A stretch of DNA of 64,000 nucleotides from NCBI GenBank assembly GCA_030645735.1, contig JAUSNP010000006.1, positions 132,095 to 196,094 of the forward strand, given 5' to 3'. Within the stretch, counting starts at the first letter, position 1. Each line of letters opens with the position of its first letter. Positions 15,169 to 51,476 of the stretch are shown here, in pieces. Both the position numbers and the translations under genes were made by a program. Below the pieces are notes generated by a model. That model did no database searches. It had not been told where the DNA came from and saw only the letters and a list, made by a program, of their open reading frames with translations. Origin of the DNA: Candidatus Moraniibacteriota bacterium. Its GTDB lineage: Bacteria; Patescibacteriota; Minisyncoccia; Moranbacterales; UBA2206.

Positions 15169-16341
15169 GTGGATAAACTACAATTAGAGAGTAAAGATGG
15201 ACTTCATTATAATACTATGCGAATTTCATACTCCGCCCTCGATTCCTATCAAAACTGTTCCCTGAAATACAAATTTCAGAATATTGATCATATCAAAACC
15301 CCCAAATCCAAGGAGGCAGTTTTCGGTACCACCATTCATGACACTATGAAATTCATTCACACGCCTGCCATTCTCTCTCCGACGGTGGACGAAGCCTTGG
15401 AGCATTTTTCCAATGCCTGGAATCCGACAGTCTTTGAAACCCCCGATGAAGAACGGGCCGCTTTTTCGCAAGGCGTGAAAATCATTCAAGATTATTATCA
15501 AAAAAACAATCCGGCCAATTTCAATATTGTGGATTTGGAATCGCGTTTTCAGATTGAAATCGGTTCTGGCGAAAACAAACACATTGTTTCTGGCATCATT
15601 GACCGCATCGACAAAACTGAGAATGGCTATGAAATCATTGACTACAAAACCACCAAAAAAATGCCATCCCAAGACAAGGTGGACAATGATTTGCAGTTGT
15701 CGGTCTATCTGCAAGCTTTTTTGGCGCGCTATCCCAAAGAAATCGCCAACATTGAAAAGTTGACCGTGAGTCTCTATTATCTCAAACATGGCGTAAAACT
15801 TTCTGCCACTCGCACAGTTGAGCAACTCAAAAAAAGTGAAGAGCTTTTCTTGGACGTGATCGCACAAATTGAAAGTGGCAAATTTGAACCCAACATCACT
15901 CCCCTGTGTGATTGGTGTGGCTATCAAAATATTTGTCCGATGTGGCGACACAAATTCAAAGAACTGCGCAAAATTGACACAGCCGAAATTGATTCCGCCA
16001 TCAATGAATATGTCGAACTCAAATCCGCCATTTCTCTCACCAAAGACCGCTTGGCTGAAATTCAAGAGACCATTCTAAGTTATATGGACCAAGAAGGTGT
16101 GGAACGTGTTTTTGGCGCTCAAGGCATCATCGCCCGCTCCCTGCGCAAGACCTACAAATATGATGACAAAAAAATTCGTGAAATTCTGGAACCACTCGAC
16201 AAATGGGAATCTGTCCTGAAAGTCGATGGCGTGGCTCTCAAACAGATCCTTGGCGTCCTGCCCTTTGACGCCCGCACCGAAATTGAAAAAGCCAAAGTAG
16301 TCGACAAAGAAACCAAGACCTTGGCGGTGAAGAAAAAATAA
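15169..16341 (+). CDS. PD-(D/E)XK nuclease superfamily protein with C-terminal Cys cluster (Cas4/AddB-nuclease-domain-like), stand-alone
   Basis: IIDRID...EIIDYKT (D...E-x-K) core; CDWCGYQNICPMW Cys motif. Confidence 0.55.
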   Translation: MDKLQLESKDGLHYNTMRISYSALDSYQNCSLKYKFQNIDHIKTPKSKEAVFGTTIHDTMKFIHTPAILSPTVDEALEHFSNAWNPTVFETPDEERAAFSQGVKIIQDYYQKNNPANFNIVDLESRFQIEIGSGENKHIVSGIIDRIDKTENGYEIIDYKTTKKMPSQDKVDNDLQLSVYLQAFLARYPKEIANIEKLTVSLYYLKHGVKLSATRTVEQLKKSEELFLDVIAQIESGKFEPNITPLCDWCGYQNICPMWRHKFKELRKIDTAEIDSAINEYVELKSAISLTKDRLAEIQETILSYMDQEGVERVFGAQGIIARSLRKTYKYDDKKIREILEPLDKWESVLKVDGVALKQILGVLPFDARTEIEKAKVVDKETKTLAVKKK

Positions 16342-16359
16342 TCATAATTTAATTACTGC

Positions 16360-16698
16360 TCAGGCGAATCTGTATAAAACTGCAACCGAGCTAATGCCGA
16401 GTATAATTCCAAATATTTCCCAAGTCGTTATTTTTTCGTGGAACACAAATACGCTCACTATCGCCAAAATTGCAATGCAGCTGACACCGTAAATCACCCC
16501 ACTAGTCGATAGTTTTATGTTTTTCACAACATAAACCCAGCCCAGTCCAGTTAATCCATATATTACTATACCAATAAAAAGAAATTTGTTCCAAACGGAA
16601 TTTTCAAGAGAAGCTTTTTTGATAAAATAGTCTGCTATTACAGTAATAATAGATAAGCCTACAGCGGCAAGAAAATATAAAGATTTTAGCATATGCAA
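16360..16698 (-). CDS. Small 4-TM membrane protein (SMR/DMT-like)
   Basis: Four hydrophobic helices, 112 aa. Confidence 0.4.
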   Translation of the reverse strand: MHMLKSLYFLAAVGLSIITVIADYFIKKASLENSVWNKFLFIGIVIYGLTGLGWVYVVKNIKLSTSGVIYGVSCIAILAIVSVFVFHEKITTWEIFGIILGISSVAVLYRFA

Positions 16699-16712
16699 AA
16701 AATTAGTGACTT

Positions 16713-17405
16713 TTATTTTATAATCGTCCCTTTGGCTTTCTTGCCCTCCAAATAGTTTTTCAGGTTCGGCAGGTTTTTGCCATTCATAATGGCCACTTCC
16801 AAATTGTTTTCTTGCGCTTCTTTGGAAGCGATTGGATCAAAGGGCGCGTTCATGCCTGGGTCCCATTTGTTGCCGACCATCTTGCGGAATTCTGCCCAAG
16901 ACATCTCTTTGATTTTTTTGCAATCTGGAAACTTACGCGGATCTTTGTCGCAAACATAATCAATGTTAGAAAGATTGATGATAGTTTTGATGTCCAAATA
17001 TTTTGCTAACAAAACAGCATCAAAATCAGTTGAGAAACCTGGGCGCCAACCTGCCGCTACTAAAATGTCTTCTTTGAAATCATAGAAGTCCTCCAGATCA
17101 TGCGGGTTCTTGTTGATTCTTGGATGGGCGTGTTTTCTAAAAATTGTACGAATGAAATGCGCATTCATGCGAGTGGCGTGGATCCCGATCCAATCTTTGT
17201 CATCATCCGTGATGTTGTCCACCTTGGCAGCCGCGTCAATATATTTGCGCGCCGTCTTGCCACCACCCGTGATCAAAATAAATTTATAACCTTTCTTGAT
17301 TTGTTCCTCAATGAGCGCCTTGAACTTCTTCACAAATTTCCAATCAATCTCCTCCGGCACAATAAGCGACCCACCCAACGAAATAATTACTGTTTTTTTG
17401 TCCAT
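16713..17405 (-). CDS. Amino-acid-kinase family protein; possible archaeal-type UMP kinase
   Basis: TVIISLGGSLI N-terminus and ILITGGG glycine-rich region. Confidence 0.45.
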   Translation of the reverse strand: MDKKTVIISLGGSLIVPEEIDWKFVKKFKALIEEQIKKGYKFILITGGGKTARKYIDAAAKVDNITDDDKDWIGIHATRMNAHFIRTIFRKHAHPRINKNPHDLEDFYDFKEDILVAAGWRPGFSTDFDAVLLAKYLDIKTIINLSNIDYVCDKDPRKFPDCKKIKEMSWAEFRKMVGNKWDPGMNAPFDPIASKEAQENNLEVAIMNGKNLPNLKNYLEGKKAKGTIIK

Positions 17406-17421
17406 AATTTTTTTATAATAA

Positions 17422-18330
17422 TTATTTATTTAAAAAATACACACCGATAAACATTATAGCAATTGAAACGAATCTTTGCACGAGATGTTTTTTGAGCAAA
17501 CTTTCCTCGCCCAATTTTGGTGCAAATATCGTGATGATTATTCCTAATAGAAAAACAAAGAAGGGTTGAAAACCATTCACCACCCAAACTAGTGTAATTG
17601 GAGCTAGGAGTGAGGCAAAAGAAAAAATAAGTTTACTGGATATATTGATAAATTCAGTTAGAGCATTTAAGCTCAAAATTGGCAGCCCATTTAATTTGAA
17701 GATTTTAAAAAATTGTTGGCGATATGATTTAACCACCAACAAAGCAGCTGCGGCCAAACTAAACCCAACATATTCCCAAAAAGTAGTGACCCAAAAACTT
17801 TCTTGAATAGCTACAAATTTGAAAATCAAACTATTAGTTGCAAAAAATAATGATGACAACGCCATCAATCCCAAAACTTTCATTTTCAGCTTAACTGTTC
17901 CAACTCCAATCTCCAAAGAGATTCCCATTGCACCCAAAATAATCATAACTGATGCAAAGAGTTGCGTTGCATTCAAACTCTCACCTAACAAAAAATATGC
18001 GCCCACATACGAAAACAATGGAATTATCTGAAACAAGGGAGCAACAATTGAAGCCTCCTCTTCTTGCATAGCATGCAAATACGGTAAATAGGCATATAAA
18101 TATAATGTCCCACTAATTGTAACTGTAATCGCAGATATGAGTGGCACAGAAAAAACTCCGTCATTAAAAATCGGAATAAGTATCGCCAGCAATGAACCAA
18201 GAAAAACTGAAAAAATCATCAGCGCGCCAGCACTCGCTCCTTTGAAATATCTGGTTAGTATGAATTTATCAAGATGATTAGAAAGCGCCCAAAGTGCCGG
18301 CGCTATCAATGCAATGAAAAACCAAGTCAT
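17422..18330 (-). CDS. EamA/DMT-superfamily transporter (10 TM)
   Basis: Duplicated 5-TM hydrophobic pattern. Confidence 0.6.
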   Translation of the reverse strand: MTWFFIALIAPALWALSNHLDKFILTRYFKGASAGALMIFSVFLGSLLAILIPIFNDGVFSVPLISAITVTISGTLYLYAYLPYLHAMQEEEASIVAPLFQIIPLFSYVGAYFLLGESLNATQLFASVMIILGAMGISLEIGVGTVKLKMKVLGLMALSSLFFATNSLIFKFVAIQESFWVTTFWEYVGFSLAAAALLVVKSYRQQFFKIFKLNGLPILSLNALTEFINISSKLIFSFASLLAPITLVWVVNGFQPFFVFLLGIIITIFAPKLGEESLLKKHLVQRFVSIAIMFIGVYFLNK

Positions 18331-18343
18331 TATTTTCTATAAA

Positions 18344-18796
18344 TTAATATTTACATCCCGTGCTGCGTGTGCGGCCTTGAGCGGTTGCCTCCCCTTCTGT
18401 TTTGAAACAAGCTAGATTTTCCGGCTTGATTCTTTTGGCATAGGAGCAGGTTGGCGGATAATATTTGTCTGAACTTTTACTGCCCACATAGGTACAATTG
18501 GCCATGTTTGACGGTTGTTGTGAATTGGCCACTAGAGCAGTCTTTTGTGCGGGGGTGCTGTTGGATTCAATTATACCACTAACTGGGCTTTCTGGGCTAG
18601 TTTTGGGGCTTTCAGAGGGCTTTTCGATGACCAAAGGGCTAGTTTTGATGGATTTACCCTGGACATAGCCGAATTCAAAAGAAATGCCCGCCACTAGCAA
18701 AAATCCGACAGCCAAAACTATCTTATATTCATATTGCGTCCAAAAGGACTTTATAGACTTTATGAACTTTTCACTTTCTGACTCCATAGTTGACAT
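18344..18796 (-). CDS. Secreted/anchored hypothetical protein with S/P-rich linker and C-terminal 4-Cys domain
   Basis: N-terminal TM, low-complexity linker, Cys cluster. Confidence 0.4.
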   Translation of the reverse strand: MSTMESESEKFIKSIKSFWTQYEYKIVLAVGFLLVAGISFEFGYVQGKSIKTSPLVIEKPSESPKTSPESPVSGIIESNSTPAQKTALVANSQQPSNMANCTYVGSKSSDKYYPPTCSYAKRIKPENLACFKTEGEATAQGRTRSTGCKY

Positions 18797-18819
18797 TATA
18801 CCATATTTTGCTATAATTC
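18791..18819 (+). promoter_or_regulatory. Sigma70-like promoter (TTGACA-16-TATAAT) for rpmA, followed by a ~175-nt structured leader
   Basis: Near-consensus hexamers; leader contains a GCCTTCGGC tetraloop hairpin. Confidence 0.45.
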
Positions 18820-18998
18820 TATTCGTATGTGAATTGCGAATGGCTATCCCAGTATCGATTCCGACAGAACCTTGAAGTGATGGCTTTAATGTTCCACGGA
18901 TTCGCCTTCGGCTTTAGCCTGTAATTCTTTTAAGTATTAAGTAAGAATCGATACGGGACGCTCATTTTTATGGCTTCTCGCTATCGCTCAAGATAAAA

Positions 18999-19352
18999 AT
19001 GGCGCATCGTAAAGCTGGTGGTTCTACCCAGCTGGGCCGAGATTCAATCTCGAAACGGCTCGGCGTAAAAATCTTTGGAGATCAAAAAGTTCAAGCTGGC
19101 AACATCATTATCCGACAAAGAGGTTCCAAATGGAGACCCGGAAAAAATGTTCGTCGCGGTGAAGATGACACTCTTTATTCAGTAATCGATGGAATGGTAA
19201 AATTCACTAAAAAGAAAGTTATTACTTTCACTGGCAAGCTAGAAGAAAAAAGATTTGTTTCAGTGGTGGAAGCTGTAACTGTTGAAAGAAAAGTTAGAGC
19301 TCCTCGCGCCAAAACAAAGGCTGGCAAAATTAGCAACGCAAAAAAGAAATAA
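18999..19352 (+). CDS. rpmA: Ribosomal protein L27 with ~30-aa Lys-rich C-terminal extension
   Basis: MAHKKAGGST-like start and GNIIIRQRG core; 117 aa instead of the usual ~85. Confidence 0.85.
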
Positions 19353-19368
19353 GCTATCTTGCATAAAA

Positions 19369-19400
19369 AAATCCTCTCATTTATTTGAGAGGATTTTTTG
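19369..19400 (+). terminator. Rho-independent terminator of rpmA
   Basis: AATCCTCTCA-loop-TGAGAGGATT followed by TTTTTGTTG. Confidence 0.65.
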
Positions 19401-19404
19401 TTGT

Positions 19405-19475
19405 GTTATTGGGAAGCGGACAGTCCGCTCAACACTCAGACACCGAGTGTCCAACATTTGCGGACAGTCCGCCTA
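19405..19475. repeat. Left palindrome array of the cassette: GCGGACAGTCCGC, GACACCGAGTGTC, GCGGACAGTCCGC
   Basis: Three 6-N-6 palindromes; a 17-nt stretch is the exact reverse complement of sequence at 20547-20563. Confidence 0.7.
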
Positions 19476-19497
19476 TAATTGCAAAAAGTTATTTTTT

Positions 19498-20529
19498 TTA
19501 TTCTTCTTCCTTGTTAATATCTTTTGCGTCTCTTTCTGCTACAAATTTTTTTACCTCTTCATAACTCATTCTTTTTGGCCACCAAAGATTACCTTTAACA
19601 TCATACACAGGAACCAATAAATCCGTAGAAAACATCATATCCACTATCTTGGTAACCATTTTCATAACATCTTCTGGGTCATCACTAATATTTAAAGTAT
19701 AGAGATCCTCCTTATTTATATAATTAGGATAGACATAGTCATACATATTTTCTGGAATTTTTGGTATTTTATCTTTTAAAATATTGGCAATAAAATGTTT
19801 TCTCTTCTCTTCAATATTATTTTTTTCGTGGCATCGAAAAATTATTCCGGTTAAAAGTTTTGGACTTATGCGTGGAAAAAGAGAAAATCCAAATTCTGCA
19901 AGATCACAATTTTCAAAAGGTTTGCCATCATTGTTAGAGTATGTACGTAATTGCAGGGAGTCAGACCCAAACTTGCTCCTGTCTAACTCTTGAAATTTAT
20001 CAAGGTCAAATATAATGCCCATTTGGTCACCACCACCCAACCTGTCTTTTCCAAAAGAACCTGTACGCATCAATCTGGGATATTTACCTTTTTCAACCTC
20101 ATCATTTGATCTCCCAACAATATTAAAACATTGACTTATACCTCCTCCTTTACCATGTATTGAATCTCTTTGAATTTTTGCCCATTCATTTTTTTCAACT
20201 TGCCCTCTTCCGTTTTGTTTGCCGAGAGATCCGTTTATTAGAACATCTTTAAGATGGGTGTACGGGAGTTTTTTCTCGAGCCATTCTTCATGAGTTTTTC
20301 CAGTTAGTGCTCTATACGCTATCCCATCTCTATCAATATCTTGCACCTTTGCCATAATCTGCTCAATTTGCTCCGGTGAAAGTTCTTGTTCTAAATTTTG
20401 AACAATCTCGGTTTCTTCAATATGTTCTATTGGCATTGGTTTTGGAACCTCAGTTGGCATTTGATCAAATTTCATAAAATAAAAAATAAAATTTATTTTG
20501 GCGGACAATCCGAAAGTGTTGGACACCAA
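19498..20529 (-). CDS. Hypothetical protein of unknown function, cargo of the IR-flanked cassette; real start probably the ATG at 20475
   Basis: Long ORF with an acidic N-terminus and Gly-rich centre; I could recognise no family. Confidence 0.5.
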   Translation of the reverse strand: MVSNTFGLSAKINFIFYFMKFDQMPTEVPKPMPIEHIEETEIVQNLEQELSPEQIEQIMAKVQDIDRDGIAYRALTGKTHEEWLEKKLPYTHLKDVLINGSLGKQNGRGQVEKNEWAKIQRDSIHGKGGGISQCFNIVGRSNDEVEKGKYPRLMRTGSFGKDRLGGGDQMGIIFDLDKFQELDRSKFGSDSLQLRTYSNNDGKPFENCDLAEFGFSLFPRISPKLLTGIIFRCHEKNNIEEKRKHFIANILKDKIPKIPENMYDYVYPNYINKEDLYTLNISDDPEDVMKMVTKIVDMMFSTDLLVPVYDVKGNLWWPKRMSYEEVKKFVAERDAKDINKEEE

Positions 20530-20570
20530 GTGTCTCGAGTTTGTAATGACTATCGGACACTCGGTGTCTG
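20497..20570. repeat. Right palindrome array of the cassette: GGCGGACAATCCG, GACACCAAGTGTC, GACACTCGGTGTC
   Basis: Inverted with respect to the left array; sits in the 5' region of the cargo gene. Confidence 0.7.
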
Positions 20571-20598
20571 AATTTTCAAATCTTGCATAAAAACTGAT

Positions 20599-21645
20599 TT
20601 AGTATTCTGCTAATATTTTCAAAATCTTTTCAGCTAGATTTGCAAATTCCTCTTTGGATTTTTCAATATTCTCCTTAGTGCCTTGATGAATTTCTTCTAT
20701 GCAATTTGGATCTAAATCAAAAATTGCCACTCCAATCTCCTGGCATTTTGCTGGGATGCGTCCATAATCTTGTATCTCAGCCAAGGAGCTTTTCCAACTT
20801 CTTTCAACCAATCCATTTCTTCCATGTCTTTCTGAAAGATAATTTTTAACTTTTTTCGGAATTTCTTCGATCCAACGGCGATGATCTTTGATAGGTTGTT
20901 TGCCATATACATTGTATGAATTTACAATATAACCAATAAATAGTCCGTCGCCTGAAAGTACGAATTTATTTTCGGTATCACCAGAAAGCGCTTTGCCCGT
21001 ATTTTTCCAATTATATTTCCATTTTTCAAATATACTGCCAAGATTTTCAATGCCCTGTACGCTAAAAGCATCCGGCATCATCGGCACTACGAAATAATCA
21101 GATCCAAGAAATACAACTTGATTGAGCAATGATAGGCTTGGCGATGAATCAATTACAAAAATATCTACTTCATCATTCAATCCTCTTTCGCGCAAAAAGC
21201 GATCAATGGCACTGGTTTGAAAGTATCCTAACTGTTGCCCAGCTGCTGCCTGTCCATAGGCCATAACTAATATATTTTCATACAATGAAAGATTGACACT
21301 GCCTTTCAGTAAAGAGAGATTGCCTTCGCTATTTGGAACTGGAATAAAAGGTACGCTCAAATCAATGTCGGCTCCACCCTCAATCACTCCTCGCAAAACA
21401 TCATAAATATCCTTTTCTGTTGAAGAAAATAATGTTTTCTCAAATTGATTATCGCCCATAGCCAAGCGAGAAAGATTGCATTGCGGATCAAGATCAACCA
21501 GCACAGTTTTATAACCAAGCTTCGCAAAAGACATTGCACAATTAAAAGCCAGTGTTGTCTTGCCGACTCCGCCTTTATTATTGGCAAATAGAAGTTTTTT
21601 TGTTCGAGTGAATTTCATAGATGCAGTATAGCACAAAAACACCAA
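20599..21645 (-). CDS. ParA/MinD-family P-loop ATPase with ~100-aa C-terminal extension
   Basis: Deviant Walker A NKGGVGKTT; VLVDLDPQ; no ParB-like gene recognisable nearby. Confidence 0.7.
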   Translation of the reverse strand: MVFLCYTASMKFTRTKKLLFANNKGGVGKTTLAFNCAMSFAKLGYKTVLVDLDPQCNLSRLAMGDNQFEKTLFSSTEKDIYDVLRGVIEGGADIDLSVPFIPVPNSEGNLSLLKGSVNLSLYENILVMAYGQAAAGQQLGYFQTSAIDRFLRERGLNDEVDIFVIDSSPSLSLLNQVVFLGSDYFVVPMMPDAFSVQGIENLGSIFEKWKYNWKNTGKALSGDTENKFVLSGDGLFIGYIVNSYNVYGKQPIKDHRRWIEEIPKKVKNYLSERHGRNGLVERSWKSSLAEIQDYGRIPAKCQEIGVAIFDLDPNCIEEIHQGTKENIEKSKEEFANLAEKILKILAEY

Positions 21646-21681
21646 TATAGTTAATACACGCTAAAAAAACGCAATACGATA

Positions 21682-23322
21682 CTATTTCCTCTTCAAATCT
21701 TGTCCGGCTTTGATGAAAGCGTTGAAGAGTGGATGACCACTCAGCGGACTGGTTTTTAGTTCTGGATGGAATTGAGTGGCCAAGAAGAATGGATGCACAG
21801 CTGTTGGCAATTCAGTGATTTCCATCAATTTGCCATTTGGCGATTTGCCTGAGAAAACCAAGCCAGCTTTTTCCAATCGTTCAATGTAACTTGGATTGAC
21901 TTCCCAACGATGTCTATGTCGTTCAGAAATTTTTGTCGCTTTGTAGGCTTTGTTGGCCAAACTGCCTTTCTGCAAATTAGCTGGATAAGCACCCAAACGC
22001 ATAGTAGCTCCATAATTGCCATCTTCCAAATTCTTTTTCTGCTCCGGCATAATATCAATAACTGGATTTTTCGTTTTGCGATCCACTTCGGTAGTATTGG
22101 CATCTTTGAGACCCAAGACATTTCTAGAATATTCAATCACAGCCAATTGCATACCATAGCAAAGTCCAAAAAATGGAATTTTATTTTTACGTAAAAATTC
22201 AATCGCTACAATCTTGCCTTCAATTCCACGAGAACCAAATCCTCCAGGAATCACCACACCGTCATATTGTTTCAAGTCTTCCAATTTCTCAGGATTTTTT
22301 TCATATGTTTCAGAACTGATCCAATCAATTTGCGGCTTCACTTTGTTGTGATAACTAGCATGTTTCACCGCCTCAATCACACTGATGTAGGCATCAGACA
22401 AAACAAAATCACCAGTGCCAAAATATTTACCCACAATTCCAATTTTTGCCACACCTGTTGGATGTTTAATTTTTTCTACCAAGTCATACCACCTTTTCAA
22501 ATCAGTCGCCTTATATTTCAAGCCCAATTTTTTCAAAATCAACCGACTGAAATCATCACGTTCGAAATTGATTGGCACTTCATAAATGCTTTCAATATCT
22601 GGAGCAGAAATCACGTCGCGTTCCGGAATATTACAAAACATCGCGATTTTTTCTTTTCTTCTCTGGTCAAGATATGTCTCGGAACGAGCAATGATAAAGT
22701 CAGGCTGGATGCCTGCCCCATTTAATGTGCGCACAGCATATTGAGTTGGTTTGGTTTTCATTTCCCCAACCTTGGAAGGAATTGGCAAATAACTAACCAT
22801 CACCGTAATGATATCATCGGGATATTTGATTTTCATCATGCGAGCTGCTTCCAAGAAAAGAATATTTTGATATTCACCAACTGTACCACCAACCTCAATC
22901 AAAGTGATATCTGACTTGGCTTTTTCAGAAGCCCTCTCAATGCGATCAATCACTTCCATCGGAATGTGAGGCACGACCTCCACGCACTTACCTTTATATT
23001 CCAAATTTCTTTCTTTATGAATAACCGTCTCATAGACACTGCCAGTGGTCATATAATTTTCTGATGGCAAAGTCAACTCCATGAAACGCTCATAATTTCC
23101 CATGTCTTGATCAGTCTCCAAGCCAGAATCTAACACGAAAGTCTCGCCATGTTCCGTTGGGTTCATCGTGCCAGCATCAACATTGATGTATGGATCAATC
23201 TTTAAAGCTGTCACCGCAAAACCACGAGCTTTTAGAATCGCTCCGATTGACGAAGTTGTAATTCCTTTCCCCACCCCACTCATCACTCCCCCAACCACGA
23301 AAATGTACTTTCGGTTTTTCAT
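21682..23322 (-). CDS. pyrG: CTP synthase
   Basis: GGVMSGVGKGITTSS N-terminus; glutamine amidotransferase GLCYGMQ motif. Confidence 0.92.
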   Translation of the reverse strand: MKNRKYIFVVGGVMSGVGKGITTSSIGAILKARGFAVTALKIDPYINVDAGTMNPTEHGETFVLDSGLETDQDMGNYERFMELTLPSENYMTTGSVYETVIHKERNLEYKGKCVEVVPHIPMEVIDRIERASEKAKSDITLIEVGGTVGEYQNILFLEAARMMKIKYPDDIITVMVSYLPIPSKVGEMKTKPTQYAVRTLNGAGIQPDFIIARSETYLDQRRKEKIAMFCNIPERDVISAPDIESIYEVPINFERDDFSRLILKKLGLKYKATDLKRWYDLVEKIKHPTGVAKIGIVGKYFGTGDFVLSDAYISVIEAVKHASYHNKVKPQIDWISSETYEKNPEKLEDLKQYDGVVIPGGFGSRGIEGKIVAIEFLRKNKIPFFGLCYGMQLAVIEYSRNVLGLKDANTTEVDRKTKNPVIDIMPEQKKNLEDGNYGATMRLGAYPANLQKGSLANKAYKATKISERHRHRWEVNPSYIERLEKAGLVFSGKSPNGKLMEITELPTAVHPFFLATQFHPELKTSPLSGHPLFNAFIKAGQDLKRK

Positions 23323-36237: not shown

Positions 36238-36337
36238 TGTCATCCTGAACTTTATTCAGGATCTACTCTGCGTTTCACTGAGATAAATTTAGATTAATGA
36301 TACAGTGAGCAGATTCCGGGTCAAGCCCGGAATGACA
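36238..36337. repeat. Element family B, copy 2 (orientation 1)
   Basis: TGTCATCCTGAAC...TTCAGGAT and ATTCCGGGTCAAGCCCGGAATGACA hairpins; ends 11 nt before the ATG of the next gene. Confidence 0.75.
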
Positions 36338-36348
36338 GCACTATACTT

Positions 36349-37431
36349 ATGCGAATTTTATTTATTTCCCACGCTTATCCGCCTACTGTTGGTGGCGTGG
36401 AAAACCAGAATTTTGAACTTTCCACTTGGCTAGGAGAAATTGCGGAAGTCAAAACCATTGCCAACGGACGAGGCAAGAAGTTTTTGCCATTTTGGATGCC
36501 CTACGCTCTCGTAAAGAGTCTTTTTCTGATGCCAAAATATGATGTCATCCTTTTGGGCAATGCCCTCTTAGCACACATGGGCTGGATATTGAAAATCATT
36601 TATAGAAAACCTGTAGTTGTTGTAGTGCATGGATTGGATTTAACTTTCCAGAATTGGTGCTACCAAAAATTCTGGGTCAATTTTTTCATCCCCAAAATGG
36701 ACAAACTTGTTTGTGTTGGCAACGAAACAGTTCGCGTAGCCAAAGAAAAAGGCATCGCGGAAGACAAATTGGTTTTCATTCCCAATGGCGTCAACACCAA
36801 CAAATTTCAGTCGGAATATAATTGGTCAGAAATTAAAAAAATCTTTGGACGAAAACTGGAAAGCAAAAAAGTTTTGATGACTTCTGGCAGACTGGCCAGA
36901 AGAAAAGGCGTGGCTTGGTTTGTGCGCAATGTGATGCCGAAGTTGCCGGAAAATATTTTGTATATCGTGGCAGGTGACGGCGCTGATCGAGAAAATATTG
37001 AGCAAGCTATCACAGAAAACAATTTATCCGAACGCGTGAAAATGATTGGCTACATGGGCGACCCGGTGCGCGACATGCTTTTCCACACTTGCGATCTTTT
37101 CATTCAACCCAACATCAAAGTGGCTGGTGATATGGAAGGCTTTGGCTTGTCAGTTATTGAAGCAGCTTTTTGTGGCATTCCAGTCATTGCTTCGCGTTTG
37201 GAAGGCTTGCAAGACGCCATCAAAGATGGTCAAGACGGCTTTTTGATTGAACCAGAAGACGCGTCAGGCTATGTCACAAAAATCAATGAACTTTTGTCAG
37301 ATGACACAGCCCGCAAAGCTTTTGGACAACAAGCACGACAATTTGTCATTGATAATTTTGGTTGGGAAAAGATTGCGCAAAAATATTTAGATGAAATTGA
37401 GAAAGTGATCAATAAGAAAAATATCACATAA
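36349..37431 (+). CDS. GT4-family glycosyltransferase
   Basis: N-terminal HAYPPTVGGVE and C-terminal EGFGLSVIEA motifs. Confidence 0.8.
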   Translation: MRILFISHAYPPTVGGVENQNFELSTWLGEIAEVKTIANGRGKKFLPFWMPYALVKSLFLMPKYDVILLGNALLAHMGWILKIIYRKPVVVVVHGLDLTFQNWCYQKFWVNFFIPKMDKLVCVGNETVRVAKEKGIAEDKLVFIPNGVNTNKFQSEYNWSEIKKIFGRKLESKKVLMTSGRLARRKGVAWFVRNVMPKLPENILYIVAGDGADRENIEQAITENNLSERVKMIGYMGDPVRDMLFHTCDLFIQPNIKVAGDMEGFGLSVIEAAFCGIPVIASRLEGLQDAIKDGQDGFLIEPEDASGYVTKINELLSDDTARKAFGQQARQFVIDNFGWEKIAQKYLDEIEKVINKKNIT

Positions 37432-37435
37432 ACTC

Positions 37436-37535
37436 TGTCATTCCGGCCTTGAGCCGGAATCTACTCACCGTATCGTGAATCTAAATTTAATTCAGTGAAA
37501 TGTAAAATAGATCCCGGGTCAAGCCCGGGATGACA
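37436..37535. repeat. Element family B, copy 3 (orientation 2)
   Basis: TGTCATTCCGGCCTTGAGCCGGAATCT...GATCCCGGGTCAAGCCCGGGATGACA; fills the gap from 4 nt after the stop to 10 nt before the next start. Confidence 0.8.
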
Positions 37536-37545
37536 TTACAAAAAT

Positions 37546-39411
37546 ATGCTACAAACAATCGGCAATCAAATATTATTTTATCTCACATTAGTTTTTGTGT
37601 TATTTATTCCGGGCTACTCTTTGCTTTTGACGATTTTTGGTCGCAGCAAAACATTGAGCGTTTTGGAAAAATTCATAATTTCCTTTGGCCTGAGCATCAT
37701 CAGCGTGGATTTTATTTTTTTCGCCTTTTCCAAAGCCGATATTGCCATCACTCGCCTCTCATCTATCATCGGCATTGCAGCTTTCATTCTGATTTGTCTA
37801 GCTATTTTCAAATTTAGAAAATTCTCCGATTCAGTCGAAGACAATAAATTATTTTCTTTTTCCAAAAATCAATTCATTCTCATTCTGCTTTTGATTTTTT
37901 TGAGCATTTTTATTAAAACTGCCTATTTGACTGACACCGTTTTTCCGACCGCCACTGACATGGGACATCATATGTATTGGGCCAAATGGATGGTGGAAAA
38001 TCATCAGTTGCCAACCTATGACGGTATGCCAGATTTCATCATCGGTGAACACATCATTTTTGCCACCGTTGCCACCTTGAGTGGTGCCAACTTCTTCTCA
38101 GCTTTCCCAATTGTGATTCTGTTTTTAGTAAATTTGCTCAGTATCTTGATGGTTTTCATTTTGACTTTGCGCATTTTCAAAGAAAAAAATGTAGCTATCT
38201 TGTCATTGCTATTCTTGGGAGTCCTGTATGCTGTGAGCTCACCCCAAGCCAAATTTGTCAGTGGTGGCGTAGTTGGCAATATTCTTGGCAATCTACTTTT
38301 GCCAATGTCGCTCTATTTTTATTATCGCGCTTTCAGTTTTTTTGAAGCTGATGAAAAAGTTTCCAGTGAATCAAAAACATTTTTGGCCTTGGCCTTTTTC
38401 TCAACTTTCGGATTGCTCTACACGCACCATTTGACGGCTTTTATATTCCTATTTATTTTTGCTTTAATCGTTGCAATTTTCTTAATTTTAAATTTTAAGA
38501 ATTTAAAAAATATTTTTGCCTCACTATTCAAAATTGTTTTTTCTCCGCAGGTCCTAGCCACATTGGCCATCTGTTTTATTTTTTTCTTTTGGGTTTTCAC
38601 GCCCAACTACATAAAAGGTGGCGCCGTGGACACCGCTGTGGGTGCGCCCAGCAAAGAAACTCGCGCTGGCCTCACCATTGCCAACTTGCGTTCTTCCATT
38701 GGCGAAGCGCGCATCGCCTTGGGCTTCCTAGGACTTCTAGTTTTAGCCATCGGATTTAAGCGTAAAAATTTTGGCTACACTATTATCGCCGCTTGGGCCA
38801 TTATGATTTTCATCATGTCCACCCAACCAAATCTCCTTTTAGTGAATCTACCCAGCAGTCGCATCGGCAACTATCTCTCCTATCCTTTCGCCATCCTCAG
38901 TGCCTACACATTTTATTTTGTTTTCAAAAACAAAACCAATCAATTTTTGAAAGTTAGTTTCATTGTCATCGCCACTTTTGTTTTGGTAGATGGAATTTCT
39001 GATTCGGCCTATAGCTTCAAAAACAAGGAAGACTTAAGTCCCCTTGCCCAAACATTCAACGCTTCAAATTATCTAGCCACACACACCACAACTGATGATG
39101 AGATTTTGAAAGACCACAACTACATCACCGCTGACTCTTGGATGAAAATCATCTTGATGCGCGGTTACAAATATCCACAATCCCGTGGCTACTTCAAGCG
39201 TTATGATGACCAAACCAAGCCACGCGAAATGTGCACCCTCAATATGATTTCCACACCCGACAGCCCAGAAGCCAAGACTTGTTTTGCTGACACCAACACC
39301 AATTTCATCGCCATCAATCCGAACTTTGATAGCGCGCAATTTTTGAAATTGAAAAATTTTGATCAAGTCTATTCCAGCACTGGCATAAATATTTATTACA
39401 AAAATAACTAA
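37546..39411 (+). CDS. Large polytopic membrane protein, probable GT-C-fold glycosyltransferase / polymerase
   Basis: About 13 TM helices in the N-terminal two-thirds, then a soluble C-terminal domain. Confidence 0.45.
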   Translation: MLQTIGNQILFYLTLVFVLFIPGYSLLLTIFGRSKTLSVLEKFIISFGLSIISVDFIFFAFSKADIAITRLSSIIGIAAFILICLAIFKFRKFSDSVEDNKLFSFSKNQFILILLLIFLSIFIKTAYLTDTVFPTATDMGHHMYWAKWMVENHQLPTYDGMPDFIIGEHIIFATVATLSGANFFSAFPIVILFLVNLLSILMVFILTLRIFKEKNVAILSLLFLGVLYAVSSPQAKFVSGGVVGNILGNLLLPMSLYFYYRAFSFFEADEKVSSESKTFLALAFFSTFGLLYTHHLTAFIFLFIFALIVAIFLILNFKNLKNIFASLFKIVFSPQVLATLAICFIFFFWVFTPNYIKGGAVDTAVGAPSKETRAGLTIANLRSSIGEARIALGFLGLLVLAIGFKRKNFGYTIIAAWAIMIFIMSTQPNLLLVNLPSSRIGNYLSYPFAILSAYTFYFVFKNKTNQFLKVSFIVIATFVLVDGISDSAYSFKNKEDLSPLAQTFNASNYLATHTTTDDEILKDHNYITADSWMKIILMRGYKYPQSRGYFKRYDDQTKPREMCTLNMISTPDSPEAKTCFADTNTNFIAINPNFDSAQFLKLKNFDQVYSSTGINIYYKNN

Positions 39412-39412
39412 T

Positions 39413-39766
39413 ATGCGACAACAAACTAAAATCATTTTGTTTTTCATTGTTCTCTTCTTAGCCAGCTCGGTCTATCTTTTTTCCATTGATTCCAGATACA
39501 ATGACCCGACATACAACAAGAATTGGTATGCGCTATCGTTTGTTGAACCAAAATCAGACAGTTTGAATTTCGCTATTGAAAATTTTTCTGCCAACATAAA
39601 TTTCCATTGGGAGCTTTTAGCTGGCAAAGAAAAAGTTGAGACTGGTAATGTTGAAATTCAAACGGGAGAGAAAAAAGAGATTAGCCTGTCCCAAATAGCC
39701 GCTGATCAAAAAATGACCGTGCGTGTTTCTTCTGGAGATGCTACACAAGAAATTTATAAAAACTAA
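39413..39766 (+). CDS. Small signal-anchored hypothetical protein
   Basis: N-terminal TM; translationally coupled to the upstream gene. Confidence 0.35.
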   Translation: MRQQTKIILFFIVLFLASSVYLFSIDSRYNDPTYNKNWYALSFVEPKSDSLNFAIENFSANINFHWELLAGKEKVETGNVEIQTGEKKEISLSQIAADQKMTVRVSSGDATQEIYKN

Positions 39767-39773
39767 CATAGCC

Positions 39774-39874
39774 TGTCATCCCGGGCTTGACCCGGGATCT
39801 ACTCTGCGTTTCACTGAATTAAATTTAGATTCGCAATTACAGTGAGCAGATTCCGGCTCAAGGCCGGAATGACA
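39774..39874. repeat. Element family B, copy 4 (orientation 1)
   Basis: TGTCATCCCGGGCTTGACCCGGGATCT...AGATTCCGGCTCAAGGCCGGAATGACA. Confidence 0.8.
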
Positions 39875-39875
39875 A

Positions 39876-41015
39876 TTGAAAAATATGTCCAACCCTAAAA
39901 AAATATTATTAGTCACTCGCCCAATCGCCCCACCTTGGGATGAGGCCTCTAAGAATTTTGCTTTTTATCTCGCCAAAAGTGTAGCTAATTTTGATTTGAA
40001 TCTTTTGACTAATGGCCTGATCGCTGAAATTCCCAATGCTCAACAAAAACCCATTTACACCTCCAATGATTTCAGCTATTTTCAAAAACTGCGCCTCATC
40101 AAACATTTGCGCAAAATGAAAAATGATTTTGACATCTTGCATTATATTTTCACACCCACCAAACAAAATTCTTTTTTATTAAAACATTTTGTGAATGCTG
40201 GCAAAAAGAAAACTACCAAAATCATCCAAACCATAGCAACTTTGCGCGAAGATTTGTATTCTGATTCGGATCTGAAAGATTTGATGTTTGGTGATTTAAT
40301 TATCACCTATTCTGATTATGCCAAAAATAAACTCGCTTCTTTGGGATTTAAAAATGTGCAACGAGTCTATCCAGGAATTGATTTGCAATATTATTCAGCA
40401 AAACCAAAAAATATAGAAATACTTCAACAGCTTGGAATTACACAAGAAGATTTTGTAGTGACCTATCCCGGAGAATATATTCGCTTAGGCGCAACAGATG
40501 ACATCGTGCGAATGATCACAGAAAACGTTGAGGTCTTTAGAGAAAAAAAGATCAAAATATTTTTAGCCTGTCGACTGAAAAATGACAGTGAAGCTATCAA
40601 AAAAAGAGATGCGGTGCTTGAAGAACTAAAAAAACATAACGCGATGGACGTAGCTATTGTCGCTGATACATTTTCTGATATGTCAGCTATTTATAATTTG
40701 TCAGATATTGTTATTTTCCCTGTCCAAAATATGCGTGGCAAGTTTGATGTGCCTTTGGCCGCAGTTGAACCGATGGCCTGTGAAAAGCCCGTGATTGTTT
40801 CAGACCTACCGATTCTCAAGGAGTTTGCCAATGAAACCAATTCTGTCACAATTGAAAAAGGCAATTCACAACAATTGGCTGATGCAATTTTTGATCTCTA
40901 CAACAATCCAGAAAAACGAGCGACTCTCGGCAAAGGCGGACGCAAATTCTGTGAAGAAAATTTCGACATCAAAAAAGTCGCCTCAATCTACGAAAAAATT
41001 TACACCGAACTATAA
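39876..41015 (+). CDS. GT4-family glycosyltransferase; possibly starts at the ATG at 39885
   Basis: C-terminal GT-B domain with ...PMACEKPVIVSD... Confidence 0.7.
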   Translation: MKNMSNPKKILLVTRPIAPPWDEASKNFAFYLAKSVANFDLNLLTNGLIAEIPNAQQKPIYTSNDFSYFQKLRLIKHLRKMKNDFDILHYIFTPTKQNSFLLKHFVNAGKKKTTKIIQTIATLREDLYSDSDLKDLMFGDLIITYSDYAKNKLASLGFKNVQRVYPGIDLQYYSAKPKNIEILQQLGITQEDFVVTYPGEYIRLGATDDIVRMITENVEVFREKKIKIFLACRLKNDSEAIKKRDAVLEELKKHNAMDVAIVADTFSDMSAIYNLSDIVIFPVQNMRGKFDVPLAAVEPMACEKPVIVSDLPILKEFANETNSVTIEKGNSQQLADAIFDLYNNPEKRATLGKGGRKFCEENFDIKKVASIYEKIYTEL

Positions 41016-41055
41016 TTTTTATTTTTAATTCTTAATTCGTCTTATCAGTCCTATT

Positions 41056-42549
41056 ATGACTTATTCAATCAACAACCTCTCCCCTCACAAAAAACAATTT
41101 CAAACTCCTGCCATGCAAGTGCCGGCTATTTTGCATGTCTCTGATGATTTGATGCCCAATGATGCCACTTTGGCCGAAATTGAAGGCGTAGCCTCTGATC
41201 CGCATGCTTTTCATCATGTGGCTGCCATGTCTGACGTGCACAGCAAAAAGGGCCGTAAGAACCCAACTGGCACCGTGATGGCCTCAGAGGCTCATCTTTT
41301 GCCCCAAATCAATGACACCGCCCCCAATTGTGGCATGCGCTTTTTGAAGACCAATCTCACCGACGCAGATTTGACCCCAGAAAACATCGACCGACTTTTT
41401 CAAGAATTGATTGGCGTCATCCCAACCAAGACATACGTTGGCACCAAAGTGCCCTATTCTTTAATCATAGACATCTGTCGCAAAGGCATCGCACCCGTGC
41501 GGGAATTTTTTGGCTCTCGCACCAAAAATGAAATTGAAAACGCTTTTGAAGGTGGCAACTTTTTTTCCGAAATTCCCACTGAAAAAGAAATCCTCAATGC
41601 CATTCCAAAGTTATTTTTGCACATCGGACAATATCGCCTAGGTATCCTCGGCGCTGCCGGCAATCACTTTTTGGATTTGATGAAAATCACCGAAATTGAA
41701 AACCAAGAGATTGCCACAAAATTCGGATTGCAAACCGGACAATATATTTTCTTGTTGCATACCGGCTCAGGACTCCTAGGACAATACGCGTCATACTTAT
41801 ACACTCCAAAAAGGAAAGAGCATTTGAGCCAAAGAATTATTTTGGAAATTGGCAAGTTTTTATTTAAAACTGATTATAAAAAAGAATTCAAAGCGCTGTG
41901 GAAAAAAATTGAAAGTTTCAAGGACAGCAAAGAATATTTTGCCTACGATGACCAAAGTTTGGAAGGCAAACTCTTTTTGACTTCGCACAATGCCGCTGCC
42001 AATCAAGGCTATGCCAATCGTTCAATTTTGAATCATCAGTTGGATTTGGCAATTGAAAAAGTTCTTGGCAAAAATCCAGAGCTGGATATGCTTTATGACA
42101 TGCCCCATGTTTTTGTGCATCGCGAAAAGAATCATTTTGGCAAAGATGTTTGGATTCACCGCAATGGCACCGTGAGGGCTAATGGTCCAGCGCGTATGAA
42201 TCATCCATTGTTCTCCCAAACTGGAGAGCCAGTTTTCATTCCCTCTTCCATGAGCACGCCCGCCTACATTTGCGCCGGTACTGACGCCAATGAATCTAGT
42301 TTTTTCTCAGCCAGCCATGGCACCGGTCGTCGCAAAGATCCTTTGGCAGATGCGACGCACAACAAAGCTGAACTTTTTGACAAACTCAAACAACGTCAAG
42401 TCAAACTTTTCAATGCCAAATCCAAAGGCGTGGTCATGCAAGACAGTTCATACTACAAAGATGTCGAGGAAGTTATCGCTGGCATGGAAGCCAACCAAAT
42501 CGTCAAAGCCGTGGCCAAGATGGAACCAGTGGCGGTTTTAATGTACTAG
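41056..42549 (+). CDS. rtcB: RNA-splicing ligase RtcB
   Basis: DVHSKKG, APNCGMRF and SHGTGRR motifs, which include the metal-binding His/Cys of RtcB. Confidence 0.85.
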   Translation: MTYSINNLSPHKKQFQTPAMQVPAILHVSDDLMPNDATLAEIEGVASDPHAFHHVAAMSDVHSKKGRKNPTGTVMASEAHLLPQINDTAPNCGMRFLKTNLTDADLTPENIDRLFQELIGVIPTKTYVGTKVPYSLIIDICRKGIAPVREFFGSRTKNEIENAFEGGNFFSEIPTEKEILNAIPKLFLHIGQYRLGILGAAGNHFLDLMKITEIENQEIATKFGLQTGQYIFLLHTGSGLLGQYASYLYTPKRKEHLSQRIILEIGKFLFKTDYKKEFKALWKKIESFKDSKEYFAYDDQSLEGKLFLTSHNAAANQGYANRSILNHQLDLAIEKVLGKNPELDMLYDMPHVFVHREKNHFGKDVWIHRNGTVRANGPARMNHPLFSQTGEPVFIPSSMSTPAYICAGTDANESSFFSASHGTGRRKDPLADATHNKAELFDKLKQRQVKLFNAKSKGVVMQDSSYYKDVEEVIAGMEANQIVKAVAKMEPVAVLMY

Positions 42550-42573
42550 AAGTTTCATAAAAAATTAGAATTG

Positions 42574-42605
42574 GGCGGGAATGTAGGTTCACACTCCCGC
42601 TTTTT
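42574..42605 (+). terminator. Rho-independent terminator after rtcB
   Basis: GCGGGA-loop-TCCCGC plus TTTTT. Confidence 0.6.
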
Positions 42606-42624
42606 ACACAAGATGAATGCATCC

Positions 42625-42819
42625 TTATAGCCCAAACTGCCTTCTAAGGTCGCTACTTGTGTCCGGTTTAAATCTTGGGGCTTTTCTTGTCACAGTCTTG
42701 TGCTGCTCTATGTCTCCGCCATGCAAAATGGTACAGCCTAGACATATTCCACCCGCAGTTATACAAGATTTTGGATGACCACAAAATGCTAAAGCAACTT
42801 TCTTCGCTTTTCGTGCCAT
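42625..42819 (-). CDS. Small Cys-rich protein (64 aa; C13, C19, C26, C29)
   Basis: Strong GAGGGGG RBS 5 nt upstream; CGHPKSC...CLGC. Confidence 0.45.
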   Translation of the reverse strand: MARKAKKVALAFCGHPKSCITAGGICLGCTILHGGDIEQHKTVTRKAPRFKPDTSSDLRRQFGL

Positions 42820-42835
42820 AATTCAACCCCCTCAT

Positions 42836-43054
42836 TCAGATTCTTAACTTGGCCGAACTCATGTCACATTGCCCATACATATTGCAGACAGCAATTTCTT
42901 GCCCGCAATTATCGCAGCTAGTCACCCAAAACATAACAGCATGTATGAGTGTAGTGCAGGCTGGGCAATTGAAGTTTTTATTTCCACCGACCTTAATCCT
43001 TATTATTGGTTTCTTAGCATTTTCTTTCTCTTCTTTAACATCCCAAAAGGACAT
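42836..43054 (-). CDS. Small zinc-ribbon-like protein (72 aa; CPAC...CDNC plus two further Cys)
   Basis: GGAGG RBS; tandem with the preceding small gene. Confidence 0.45.
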   Translation of the reverse strand: MSFWDVKEEKENAKKPIIRIKVGGNKNFNCPACTTLIHAVMFWVTSCDNCGQEIAVCNMYGQCDMSSAKLRI

Positions 43055-43245
43055 GGCGCGCCTCCATATTGAATTGTGATTAGAGCTAGTTTTTTACATT
43101 TACCATCACCCAATTCTAATTTTTCATTTTATTGTAAAAGTTCTTATTATCAAACTAGCCCATTCTTGTAATAAATGCAAGTACTCCAGACTGGCTCCCC
43201 ACCCTATTTTATGCTATGATTTTGATGTAATAAGTTAAATATTTT

Positions 43246-43872
43246 ATGAAAATCATCACTATTTCCGGCGTAGATGGCTCAGGCAAATCGACCCAAATCA
43301 AACTTTTGCAAGCATATTTAGAATCGCAAGGTCAGCGGGTTTTTTATTTCCATGCCATCGAGTTTGGTCTAGCCACAAAACTAGCCAATTTCAAGAAAAA
43401 ATATTGCCTGATTTGCAAAATCAAAGGCCTATGTCAAATCAAGCCCACCGAAGCCAAAAGCGTCATCAAGGCCAATTGGTTGCAAATCCAACTGCGCAAA
43501 ATCTTCCTACGCATCGACATCTGCCGTTTCAAAAAACTCCTCAAAAAATTAGAAAAGGAGAAATTCGACTATCTCCTGAGTGATCGATTCTTTTACGATA
43601 CAGTCATAAATATTCACTATCTTGAAAATTCTGACATTAAAAATTCGGCCTTGATTCGAAATTCGAAATTCGAAATTCAGAATTCTTTTTATATGGACAT
43701 ATCTCCTGAACAAATCATGCAACGTGAAAGAAAGCCCGATCAAGGCCTTGAATATTTGCAAAAAAAGACTGGGTTATTCAAACAAAAAATTACTGATTGG
43801 AATATGCAAATCATTGACGCCTCAGAAAATAAAGAGATAGTTTTTGATAAAATAAAAAAGGGCCTAAGCTAA
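43246..43872 (+). CDS. tmk: Thymidylate kinase with in-frame heptamer-repeat insert
   Basis: ISGVDGSGKSTQ P-loop and DRFFYDT (DRY-like) motif. Confidence 0.7.
   Translation: MKIITISGVDGSGKSTQIKLLQAYLESQGQRVFYFHAIEFGLATKLANFKKKYCLICKIKGLCQIKPTEAKSVIKANWLQIQLRKIFLRIDICRFKKLLKKLEKEKFDYLLSDRFFYDTVINIHYLENSDIKNSALIRNSKFEIQNSFYMDISPEQIMQRERKPDQGLEYLQKKTGLFKQKITDWNMQIIDASENKEIVFDKIKKGLS
43655..43687. repeat. Tandem heptamer (TTCGAAA)x3 plus degenerate units inside tmk, in-frame (encodes IRNSKFEIQNS)
   Basis: attcgaaattcgaaattcgaaattcagaattc; CG every 7 nt. Confidence 0.75.
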
Positions 43873-43912
43873 AAGCGCCTAGGCCCATAAACCCAAATAT
43901 TCACGTTGTGAA

Positions 43913-45674: not shown

Positions 45675-45686
45675 ACTTTTCATAGC

Positions 45687-51475: not shown

Positions 51476-51476
51476 T

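Follow-up and report, generated by a model that had tools for sequence, protein, structure and literature searches.

Transposable elements of the IS200/IS605 group occur as tnpA-only, tnpA-plus-tnpB and tnpB-only forms, the last also called palindrome-associated transposable elements (PATEs). In Escherichia coli, bacterial interspersed mosaic elements (BIMEs) are mosaic arrays of different repetitive extragenic palindromic (REP) types, dispersed in hundreds of copies; we know of none that bracket one particular gene family. Systems that join such repeats to a REP-associated tyrosine transposase (RAYT), termed REPtrons or, after REP doublets forming hairpins (REPINs), REPIN-RAYT systems, were reportedly described by Nunvar et al. 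in 2010 and Ton-Hoang et al. in 2012, the latter being said to concern E. coli TnpA-REP acting on REP hairpins. There is as yet no agreement on the host role of RAYTs and REPs, and nearly all work on them concerns Proteobacteria. REPtron and REPIN-RAYT systems are also treated in two further papers (Bertels & Rainey, 2011, PMC3116915; Messing et al., 2012, PMC3479197), the second of which reports that the RAYT of E. coli, TnpA-REP, recognises REP hairpins in single-stranded DNA and cleaves at their foot. Here we describe, in a 64-kb stretch of a Candidatus Moraniibacteriota genome (contig JAUSNP010000006.1; hereafter the window, to which all window counts and absences refer), six short GC-rich palindromes arrayed around one minus-strand gene of an unnamed Patescibacteria family, which we call the cargo gene (19498..20475, 325 aa). 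We consider it probable that these palindromes are REP/BIME-like hairpins belonging to a Patescibacteria clade of RAYT-like Y1 transposases of the histidine-hydrophobic-histidine (HUH) class, and that they bracket a recurrent REP-slot gene family in a unit that is non-autonomous.

Palindrome arrays around the cargo gene

The six palindromes and the gene between them lie within positions 19405-20575, with the palindromes in mirrored order, A-B-A on one side and A'-B-B on the other. The left array consists of palindrome A1 (AGCGGAC-A-GTCCGCT, 19415..19429), REP unit B1 (19436..19454, minus strand, reverse complement TTGGACACTCGGTGTCTGA) and palindrome A2 (GCGGAC-A-GTCCGC, 19460..19472). The right array begins with a degenerate A-type palindrome, A3 (GCGGACAATCCGA, 20501..20513), and continues with REP units B2 (TTGGACAC-CAA-GTGTCTCG, 20519..20537) and B3 (TCGGACAC-TCG-GTGTCTGA, 20553..20571), both on the plus strand; the A-type palindromes have no strand, and B1 has the opposite orientation to B2 and B3. 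An earlier, sequence-only reading of this locus had reported palindrome clusters on both sides of the gene, and these are present as described: the window contains precisely three copies of GACACNNNGTGTC, at 19439, 20522 and 20556 (0.02 expected), and two perfect copies of GCGGACNGTCCGC, at 19416 and 19460, plus a degenerate third at 20501 that has two mismatches (0.5 expected). Further copies, which the same reading had thought worth seeking, are lacking elsewhere in the window, as are additional copies of the extended 19-nt B unit when up to three mismatches are allowed.

The two flanks are mutually inverted, again in agreement with the sequence-only reading; they share a 36-nt inverted repeat (81%; 19438-19473 and 20500-20535) and, over 17 nt, match perfectly in inverted orientation (TCAGACACCGAGTGTCC). 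B1, taken on the minus strand, equals B3 at 18 of 19 positions, and the flanks therefore hold the B unit in opposite orientation. With stems of 5-7 bp and loops of 1-3 nt, all six units are GC-rich imperfect hairpin palindromes of the kind that defines REPs. Folding of the region as single-stranded DNA predicts composite hairpins on both flanks (z -2.9 to -5.1), A1 pairing with A2 around B1 and B2 pairing with B3 into long hairpins, so that the inversion of B1 against B3 and the A1/A2 and B2/B3 pairings together give the inverted-pair layout of REPINs. Repeat type and hairpin potential are in this respect directly supported.

An invertible segment was considered and set aside: no recombinase lies nearby, and every unit is itself palindromic. 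A scan of 19300-20700 against Rfam gave no family near threshold, and a consensus scan of the same interval found zero sigma-70-like promoters on both strands, against 5.2 expected from shuffled sequence. The window also holds a second palindrome family, ATTCCGGCCTTGAGCCGGAAT and ATCCCGGGTCAAGCCCGGGAT, with nine copies where 0.02 would be expected; these lie at 36313-53424 and also at 31348 and 31399, as intergenic doublets about 70 nt apart that resemble classical REPIN doublets. The second family brackets one gene that looks by eye like a glycosyltransferase, and its cognate RAYT is not in the window.

RAYT-like genes and cargo homologs in related loci

We compared the window with 104 genome and metagenome loci (cargo-family, RAYT and ParA loci, labelled L with a number). 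Those with cargo homologs were drawn from genome and metagenome collections, the homologs being distant (27-45% identity); five RAYT loci (L098-L102) were sampled irrespective of the presence of a cargo gene, and seven loci were collected by way of the ParA-like gene that adjoins the cargo gene in the window. Matching palindromes bracket the cargo homolog in L001, L009, L011, L017, L036, L040 and L033 (the last on a short contig), and their sequence differs from genome to genome. The bracketing palindrome is TGTCAAAG-N5-CTTTGACA in L001, CCCCTCCT-N5-AGGAGGGG together with two more types in mirrored order in L011, CAAGGG-N3-CCCTTG in L017, AGTCGAGG-N5-CCTCGACT in L036 and ACTTGGAAGC-N3-GCTTCCAAGT in both L040 and L033; in L009 it is GACAC-N3-GTGTC, identical to the window unit. 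Such bracketing is found at about 7-8 of 45-46 non-redundant family loci, compared with 1-2 of 243 non-RAYT genes among 248 other ORFs (open reading frames) of at least 200 aa that these loci contain and that were put through the identical test (Fisher p 5e-5 to 2e-6).

Inspection of the control ORFs revealed that the test had selected almost only one other gene type, an ORF of about 213 aa that adjoins a cargo homolog. These neighbours pass the Pfam model Y1_Tnp (PF01797) with 29-36 bits against a cutoff of 23, and they carry the HUH motif NHYH and a Y(I/V)xxN motif, which gives them the domain, the HUH signature and the catalytic tyrosine helix of Y1 transposases. Their top NCBIfam match is 'REP-associated tyrosine transposase' (REP_Tyr_transpos), below its cutoff of 80 bits; homologs of the gene number more than 1700, and some bear the Joint Genome Institute (JGI) label 'REP element-mobilizing transposase RayT'. 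Since the bracketed gene of about 213 aa is a RAYT-like Y1 transposase, the palindromes are REP-type repeats of REPtron-like units.

The repeat of the window is itself tied to one clade of this transposase. The GGACAC-N3-GTGTC sequence (GGACACNNNGTGTC) is confined to five of the 104 loci (L009, L076, L098, L099 and L103), and the RAYT-like genes that all five hold belong to a single clade (65-100% identity). In each of them the sequence stands upstream of, inside and downstream of the RAYT-like gene, and tight REP doublets are present in L009, L098 and L103. These relatives thus have REPs flanking a cognate RAYT, while the 64 kb of the window hold the REPs without one; the link between repeat and RAYT clade is directly observed.

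A locus-specific REP hairpin also lies within the RAYT-like coding sequence, in frame; TTTGGACACCCAGTGTCCAAA, for example, encodes FGHPVSK. The internal copy is at 4387-4409 in L009, 421-439 in L076, 4183-4205 in L098, 4276-4309 in L099 and 4490-4508 in L103, and further ones are at 8788-8810 in L006, 4202-4222 in L100, 4160-4176 in L102, 1482-1504 in L040 and 4709-4723 in L017. It stands about 140-200 nt from the start of the gene in most clades and matches the flanking REP type in most loci; in L104 the palindrome inside the RAYT is of a different type from the flanking REPs. Such a copy may reflect self-targeting or autoregulation.

The distribution of the B unit bears directly on a different interpretation, in which a dimeric transcription factor, perhaps the cargo protein, binds the palindromes as duplex operators and represses by looping from both flanks. 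Half-sites of 5-8 bp with spacers of 1-5 nt do have the look of dimer sites, the upstream units stand about 40-60 nt ahead of the ATG in several genomes, the motif varies between genomes as does the middle of the cargo protein, and the region yielded no sigma-70-like promoter. However, the B unit of the window flanks and sits inside RAYT-like genes in loci that have no cargo gene (L098 and L099), such sites are absent from most members of the cargo family, the cargo protein has no recognisable DNA-binding domain, and an accepted explanation already exists for hairpin repeats on either side of a Y1 transposase. We consider operators of this sort distinctly unlikely, and no result here calls for the looping control by a palindrome-binding regulator that the sequence-only reading had offered as an alternative.

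The commonest neighbour of the cargo family is the RAYT-like gene. It is directly adjacent to the cargo gene in about nine loci (L009, L103, L036/L104, L017, L040, L033, L035 and L076), in three relative orientations and with at least five REP types. Wherever sequence is available beyond the cargo gene (L009, L103, L036/L104, L017, L040 and L033), a further REP is found there, and the cargo gene therefore lies inside a REP-bounded unit. Examination of synteny shows that the unit varies in content at a fixed place. L098-L101 share the order trmD-ftsW-murG-murC-RAYT-[variable slot]-cation ATPase-murB; the slot holds a cargo gene between two identical REP doublets in L009 and L103 and none in L098, L099, L100 and L101, and in L036/L104 a RAYT-cargo pair lies between trmD and ftsW. 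The forms seen among the loci are RAYT alone (L098-L102), RAYT with cargo (L009, L103 and L036), cargo with REPs (the window, L001 and L011) and cargo alone. Recurrent bracketing, adjacency and presence/absence polymorphism are accordingly matters of direct observation.

A comparison of L009 with L103 is informative in this regard: within the same slot and the same REP doublets, the RAYTs are 80% identical and the cargo proteins 42%, no higher than random pairs from the family (the cargo genes compared being 4896-5960 in L009 and 5001-5915 in L103). Such a contrast would be expected if cassettes replace one another in a REP-bounded slot, or if the family evolves very fast.

These observations also bear on two simpler accounts. 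The first is that REPs pile up in permissive intergenic spots that the cargo family happens to favour. In keeping with such a chance association, the second, dispersed REP family of the window brackets other genes, and a close relative, L091, has other palindromes after its rpmA terminator and its ParA gene; nevertheless, neighbouring genes are bracketed far less often than the family in the identical test (1-2 of 243 against 7-8 of 45-46), and adjacency to RAYT recurs with its several REP types and three gene orientations. We regard mere co-location as very unlikely. The second account is that the hairpins act at the level of RNA only, as terminators, RNase barriers or insulators at the 5' and 3' ends of the cargo transcript, and are fossil REPs inactive as DNA. 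Two papers describe REPs that can serve as terminators and stabilisers of mRNA (PMC3733652; PMC3479197), and the downstream units begin 1-26 nt past the stop codon in several genomes; a terminator or stabiliser role suits REPs placed right after a stop codon, and the lack of a RAYT in the window is in line with inactivity. On the other hand, A-type hairpins with 1-nt loops would be poor as RNA hairpins, and a function confined to RNA leaves unexplained both why one family is bracketed by differing REP types in many genomes and why it is present or absent in syntenic slots. As a full explanation we judge this account unlikely; an RNA role and a REP-bounded cassette are compatible rather than opposed.

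The cargo family and its ParA-like neighbour

The sequence-only reading had assigned the cargo gene 343 aa. That longer ORF starts at a TTG that overlaps the repeats, and the ATG at 20475, which yields 325 aa beginning MKFDQ, is the likely true start given its agreement with the N-termini of homologs. No Shine-Dalgarno sequence precedes this ATG, and several homologs have a TATAAT-like box 7-20 nt before theirs, a hint of leaderless transcripts. The gene has a GC content of 34.3%, compared with 39.5% for the window.

That the protein resembles no known family, as had been claimed, holds against each collection searched. It gave no meaningful match in Pfam, NCBIfam, PADLOC or PHROGs, 37 aligned family members gave none in Pfam, searches of Protein Data Bank (PDB) sequences with the single protein and with a profile returned nothing, a scan of viral contigs found no relative, and a fold search of BFVD produced only weak, unnamed matches. 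A word index yielded 44 homologs, all hypothetical proteins of about 220-450 aa (most about 290-360 aa) and, where the source is named, all from Patescibacteria, also called the candidate phyla radiation (CPR); an exhaustive profile search enlarged the family to 775 clusters at 50% identity. Members share an N-terminal motif, ELSPExIExIMxKVQDID, and a C-terminal one, PIYDxxGNLWWPKxMSYEEVKKFVAERD, around a hypervariable middle with large insertions, and the near-invariant residues are E35, M41, K43, D46, G82, R202, Y291, G295, W299 and P300. Conserved ends around a variable middle could suggest diversifying selection or cassette swapping.

To the profile search, which placed the protein in this unnamed family, structure comparison adds a weak resemblance. 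AlphaFold models of the window protein (predicted local distance difference test, pLDDT, 79; predicted template modelling score, pTM, 0.81) and of family member P0015 (pLDDT 84, pTM 0.83) both have DarT as top PDB fold match (8baq, E 4.6e-3 and 2.9e-3); 7omu, also DarT, follows with E 5.8e-3 and probability 0.93, 7yk3 is DarT as well, and other ADP-ribosyltransferase (ART) toxins rank after them. These matches are weak (E 3e-3 to 6e-3, TM 0.2-0.3). Among 164 members, the presumed counterparts of the NAD-binding His and of the catalytic Glu are H in 27% and E in 57%, and these positions are not conserved. Because the near-invariant residues lie elsewhere than the presumed DarT sites and the scores are weak, a DarT-like fold of the modelled protein is a lead, not a result; with no Pfam match, no PDB sequence match and unconserved catalytic positions, we do not assign the protein to the DarT family. 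No DarG-like macrodomain antitoxin is adjacent, a single ORF filling the space between the REP arrays, and no conserved small partner gene recurs among the neighbours in family loci.

Other features of the family loci may be recorded here. Two consecutive ORFs in L043 (194-851 and 857-2714) both match the cargo-family profile, which would make them either a tandem duplication or a gene that has been disrupted or extended. A neighbour of about 130 aa that looks by eye like a PemK/MazF toxin recurs beside cargo genes (L006, 5808-6201; L012, L054, L055 and L061), as does one of about 169 aa with the look of an NYN domain (L003, 4073-4583; L057, L070 and L077). Mobile or conflict-type genes may share the neighbourhoods of the cargo family.

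On the right the cargo gene adjoins a ParA/MinD-like ATPase gene on the same strand (20599-21618, minus, start at 21618, 339 aa). The sequence-only reading had seen in it a 100-aa C-terminal extension and, in the pair, a parA-parB-parS-like partition or anti-defence module. The supposed extension is part of a conserved protein and falls within the PHROG ParA-like profile: of its more than 1000 homologs, the top 120 show 81-92% identity and span Portnoy-, Moran-, Wolfe-, Kaiser-, Buchanan- and Paceibacteria, with almost every one measuring exactly 339 aa. Conservation of this degree without an adjacent ParB suggests a core function that has gone unrecognised.

Under a partition module, the cargo protein would be a centromere-binding adaptor and the palindromes its centromere, and in the window the shared strand, the adjacency and the superficial likeness of the arrays to centromeric repeats do recall one. 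Nonetheless, the ATPase is a core gene of fixed length across CPR lineages, its neighbours differ among relatives with no cargo homolog near, and the cargo protein lacks a ParB, ribbon-helix-helix (RHH) or helix-turn-helix (HTH) signature. Translated searches (tblastn) with the ParA protein against the first 29 family loci and then all 104 loci matched only in the seven loci collected with ParA itself; none of about 95 loci with a cargo-family or RAYT gene has ParA in its flanks, nor do the collected ParA loci contain the cargo family, so that the co-inheritance seen in ParABS systems is not found here. A ParA-cargo partition module was rejected on this failure to co-occur across some 100 loci, and we give the idea almost no credence: the ParA gene is a core gene unrelated to the cargo.

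The segment from ParA to cargo is missing from the rpmA-pyrG interval of the close relative L091, an absence for which the sequence-only reading had proposed to look. There, with a ParA 91% identical to that of the window, rpmA directly adjoins pyrG with no cargo gene, and ParA lies 3 kb off beside a PD-(D/E)XK gene, in the order PD-(D/E)XK, ParA, four genes, rpmA, pyrG; the window (15169-23322) has PD-(D/E)XK, four genes, rpmA, cargo, ParA, pyrG. The junctions in L091 (1674-1811 and 6021-6101), after the rpmA terminator and after ParA, carry REP-style palindromes, namely GGAGCT-N-AGCTCC (twice), which has the core of the unit flanking the RAYT of L102, and GGAGGCTCAA...TTGAGCCTCC. Their position at these junctions indicates that REP sites mark points of rearrangement in this lineage.

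To the left of the arrays, a symmetric, bidirectional hairpin with an A-run and a T-run (19366..19399) is the sole terminator-like site within 19300-20700. It is homologous to a hairpin 3' of rpmA in L091 and is therefore the native rpmA terminator, outside any insertion; the cassette accordingly starts to its right, beyond about 19405. A 14-nt exact direct repeat, ATCTTGCATAAAAA, has one plus-strand copy just past the rpmA stop and upstream of the terminator (19356..19369) and another 5 nt past the ParA stop codon (20580..20593), with the terminator, the two REP arrays and the cargo gene all lying between them; the sequence-only reading had not mentioned it. A target-site duplication was considered for this repeat and rejected, since its first copy lies upstream of the native terminator.

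Mechanism and comparison with known systems

Several observations speak against a REP-bounded cassette in the window. The A-type palindrome, GCGGAC-A-GTCCGC, was found in none of the other loci examined. PMC6006769 and PMC3733652 give GT[AG]G (or CGTC) as the tetranucleotide conserved at the foot of the REP hairpin; this proteobacterial 5' foot is absent here, and the B-type units of the window, L009, L076 and L098 have a TTGG/CCAA foot instead, with no GTAG adjacent. The 64 kb hold neither a RAYT gene or fragment nor the slot in the division and cell wall (dcw) cluster that is usual for RAYT (murC, ATPase), and all A and B units lie at one locus, the genome-wide dispersal that is a hallmark of REPs being unseen in this stretch. 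About 80% of family loci have no bracketing repeats, and the cargo family is absent from all five of the sampled RAYT loci, from which it follows that the association is facultative. Finally, the analysis turned up neither a junction left by excision or insertion, nor an empty site resolved to the nucleotide, nor a second copy, and the 14-nt direct repeat has no explanation under a REP cassette.

The proposal of the sequence-only reading that this is a mobile cassette with no transposase of its own is supported as to structure, by the REP hairpins, the RAYT genes beside cargo homologs elsewhere and the syntenic presence and absence of the cargo; for movement itself we can offer only a conditional scheme. 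By analogy with E. coli TnpA-REP, the RAYT would bind REP hairpins in single-stranded DNA and cut at their foot, and, by cleaving and joining at the REPs of this lineage, it could act in trans to excise a REP-gene-REP unit or to insert or exchange one at REP sites. As the window lacks a RAYT, its unit is either non-autonomous or a remnant: it may have been placed or exchanged at a REP site just past the rpmA terminator by a RAYT acting in trans, or it may be what is left of a REPtron after loss of the RAYT. The REP hairpins would probably also serve as insulators or as 3'-end hairpins of the cargo transcript. Beyond this, one might imagine the cargo protein as the functional partner of the RAYT, a DarT-like protein of single-stranded DNA whose task would be to recognise or modify REP hairpins or to control the RAYT. 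RAYT, partner and REPs would then make up a modular system that exists with the RAYT only, with both genes or with the partner only, much as tnpA and tnpB do in IS200/IS605, and the REP-bounded partner cassette would be swapped among genomes and diversify fast; we put this forward as a rather doubtful conjecture.

We continue to prefer the REP-bounded cassette. The loci compared here document REPtron-like units in Patescibacteria and, in addition to the transposase, a second unnamed family of about 775 clusters recurrently inside the REP bracket, one gained and lost in a fixed syntenic slot and diverging far faster than the transposase. Should the link prove functional, the family would supply a testable partner for RAYT biology and a candidate new enzyme acting on hairpins of single-stranded DNA; its fast divergence and low GC content would be compatible with an exchangeable cassette. 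What had seemed a puzzle of operators or centromeres in the window becomes a recognisable class of repeat, and the ParA gene drops out of the story. Our literature search found no paper combining RAYT or REPIN with Patescibacteria, and none linking DarT-like proteins to IS200 or RAYT.

Among described systems, DarT and DarTG (8baq, 7omu and 7yk3) offer one comparison. They are the top fold matches of two independent AlphaFold models, and DarT shares with RAYT a class of substrate, single-stranded DNA; in contrast, the cargo protein matches this fold weakly, has no sequence match, does not conserve the catalytic positions and has no adjacent DarG. The likeness to E. coli BIMEs lies in the use of more than one palindrome type in a fixed order (A-B-A / gene / A'-B-B in the window, three mirrored types in L011), whereas the arrays of the window are confined to one locus and bracket a gene of one particular family.

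IS200/IS605 elements likewise combine a Y1 transposase with hairpin ends and a second, unrelated gene inside a hairpin-bounded unit, and the RAYT-alone, RAYT-plus-cargo and cargo-plus-hairpin forms parallel their tnpA/tnpB forms. Yet the cargo is not TnpB (no Pfam match to a RuvC family), there is one copy per locus examined and in the window, the RAYT is syntenic rather than scattered, and the end hairpins are near-identical palindromes without the distinct left and right ends of an insertion sequence, a class to which we therefore do not assign the unit.

The unit is also close to the REPtron and REPIN-RAYT systems. In the related loci, as in these systems, short GC-rich hairpins flank a single-copy Y1 HUH gene in inverted arrangement, the repeat sequence is specific to a RAYT clade, doublets fold into long REPIN-like hairpins, and the conserved gene order around the RAYT (murC-RAYT-ATPase) agrees with either vertical inheritance or domestication. 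The differences are that the window has REP brackets without a RAYT and a bracketed gene that is not a transposase, that its six units share one locus with no dispersal in 64 kb and no GT[AG]G foot, and that the RAYT ORFs of this clade, in Patescibacteria hosts, contain an in-frame REP copy. REPtrons and REPINs are thus already known; what is new is a REP-bounded unit whose content is not a transposase but an unnamed family recurrently partnered with RAYT.

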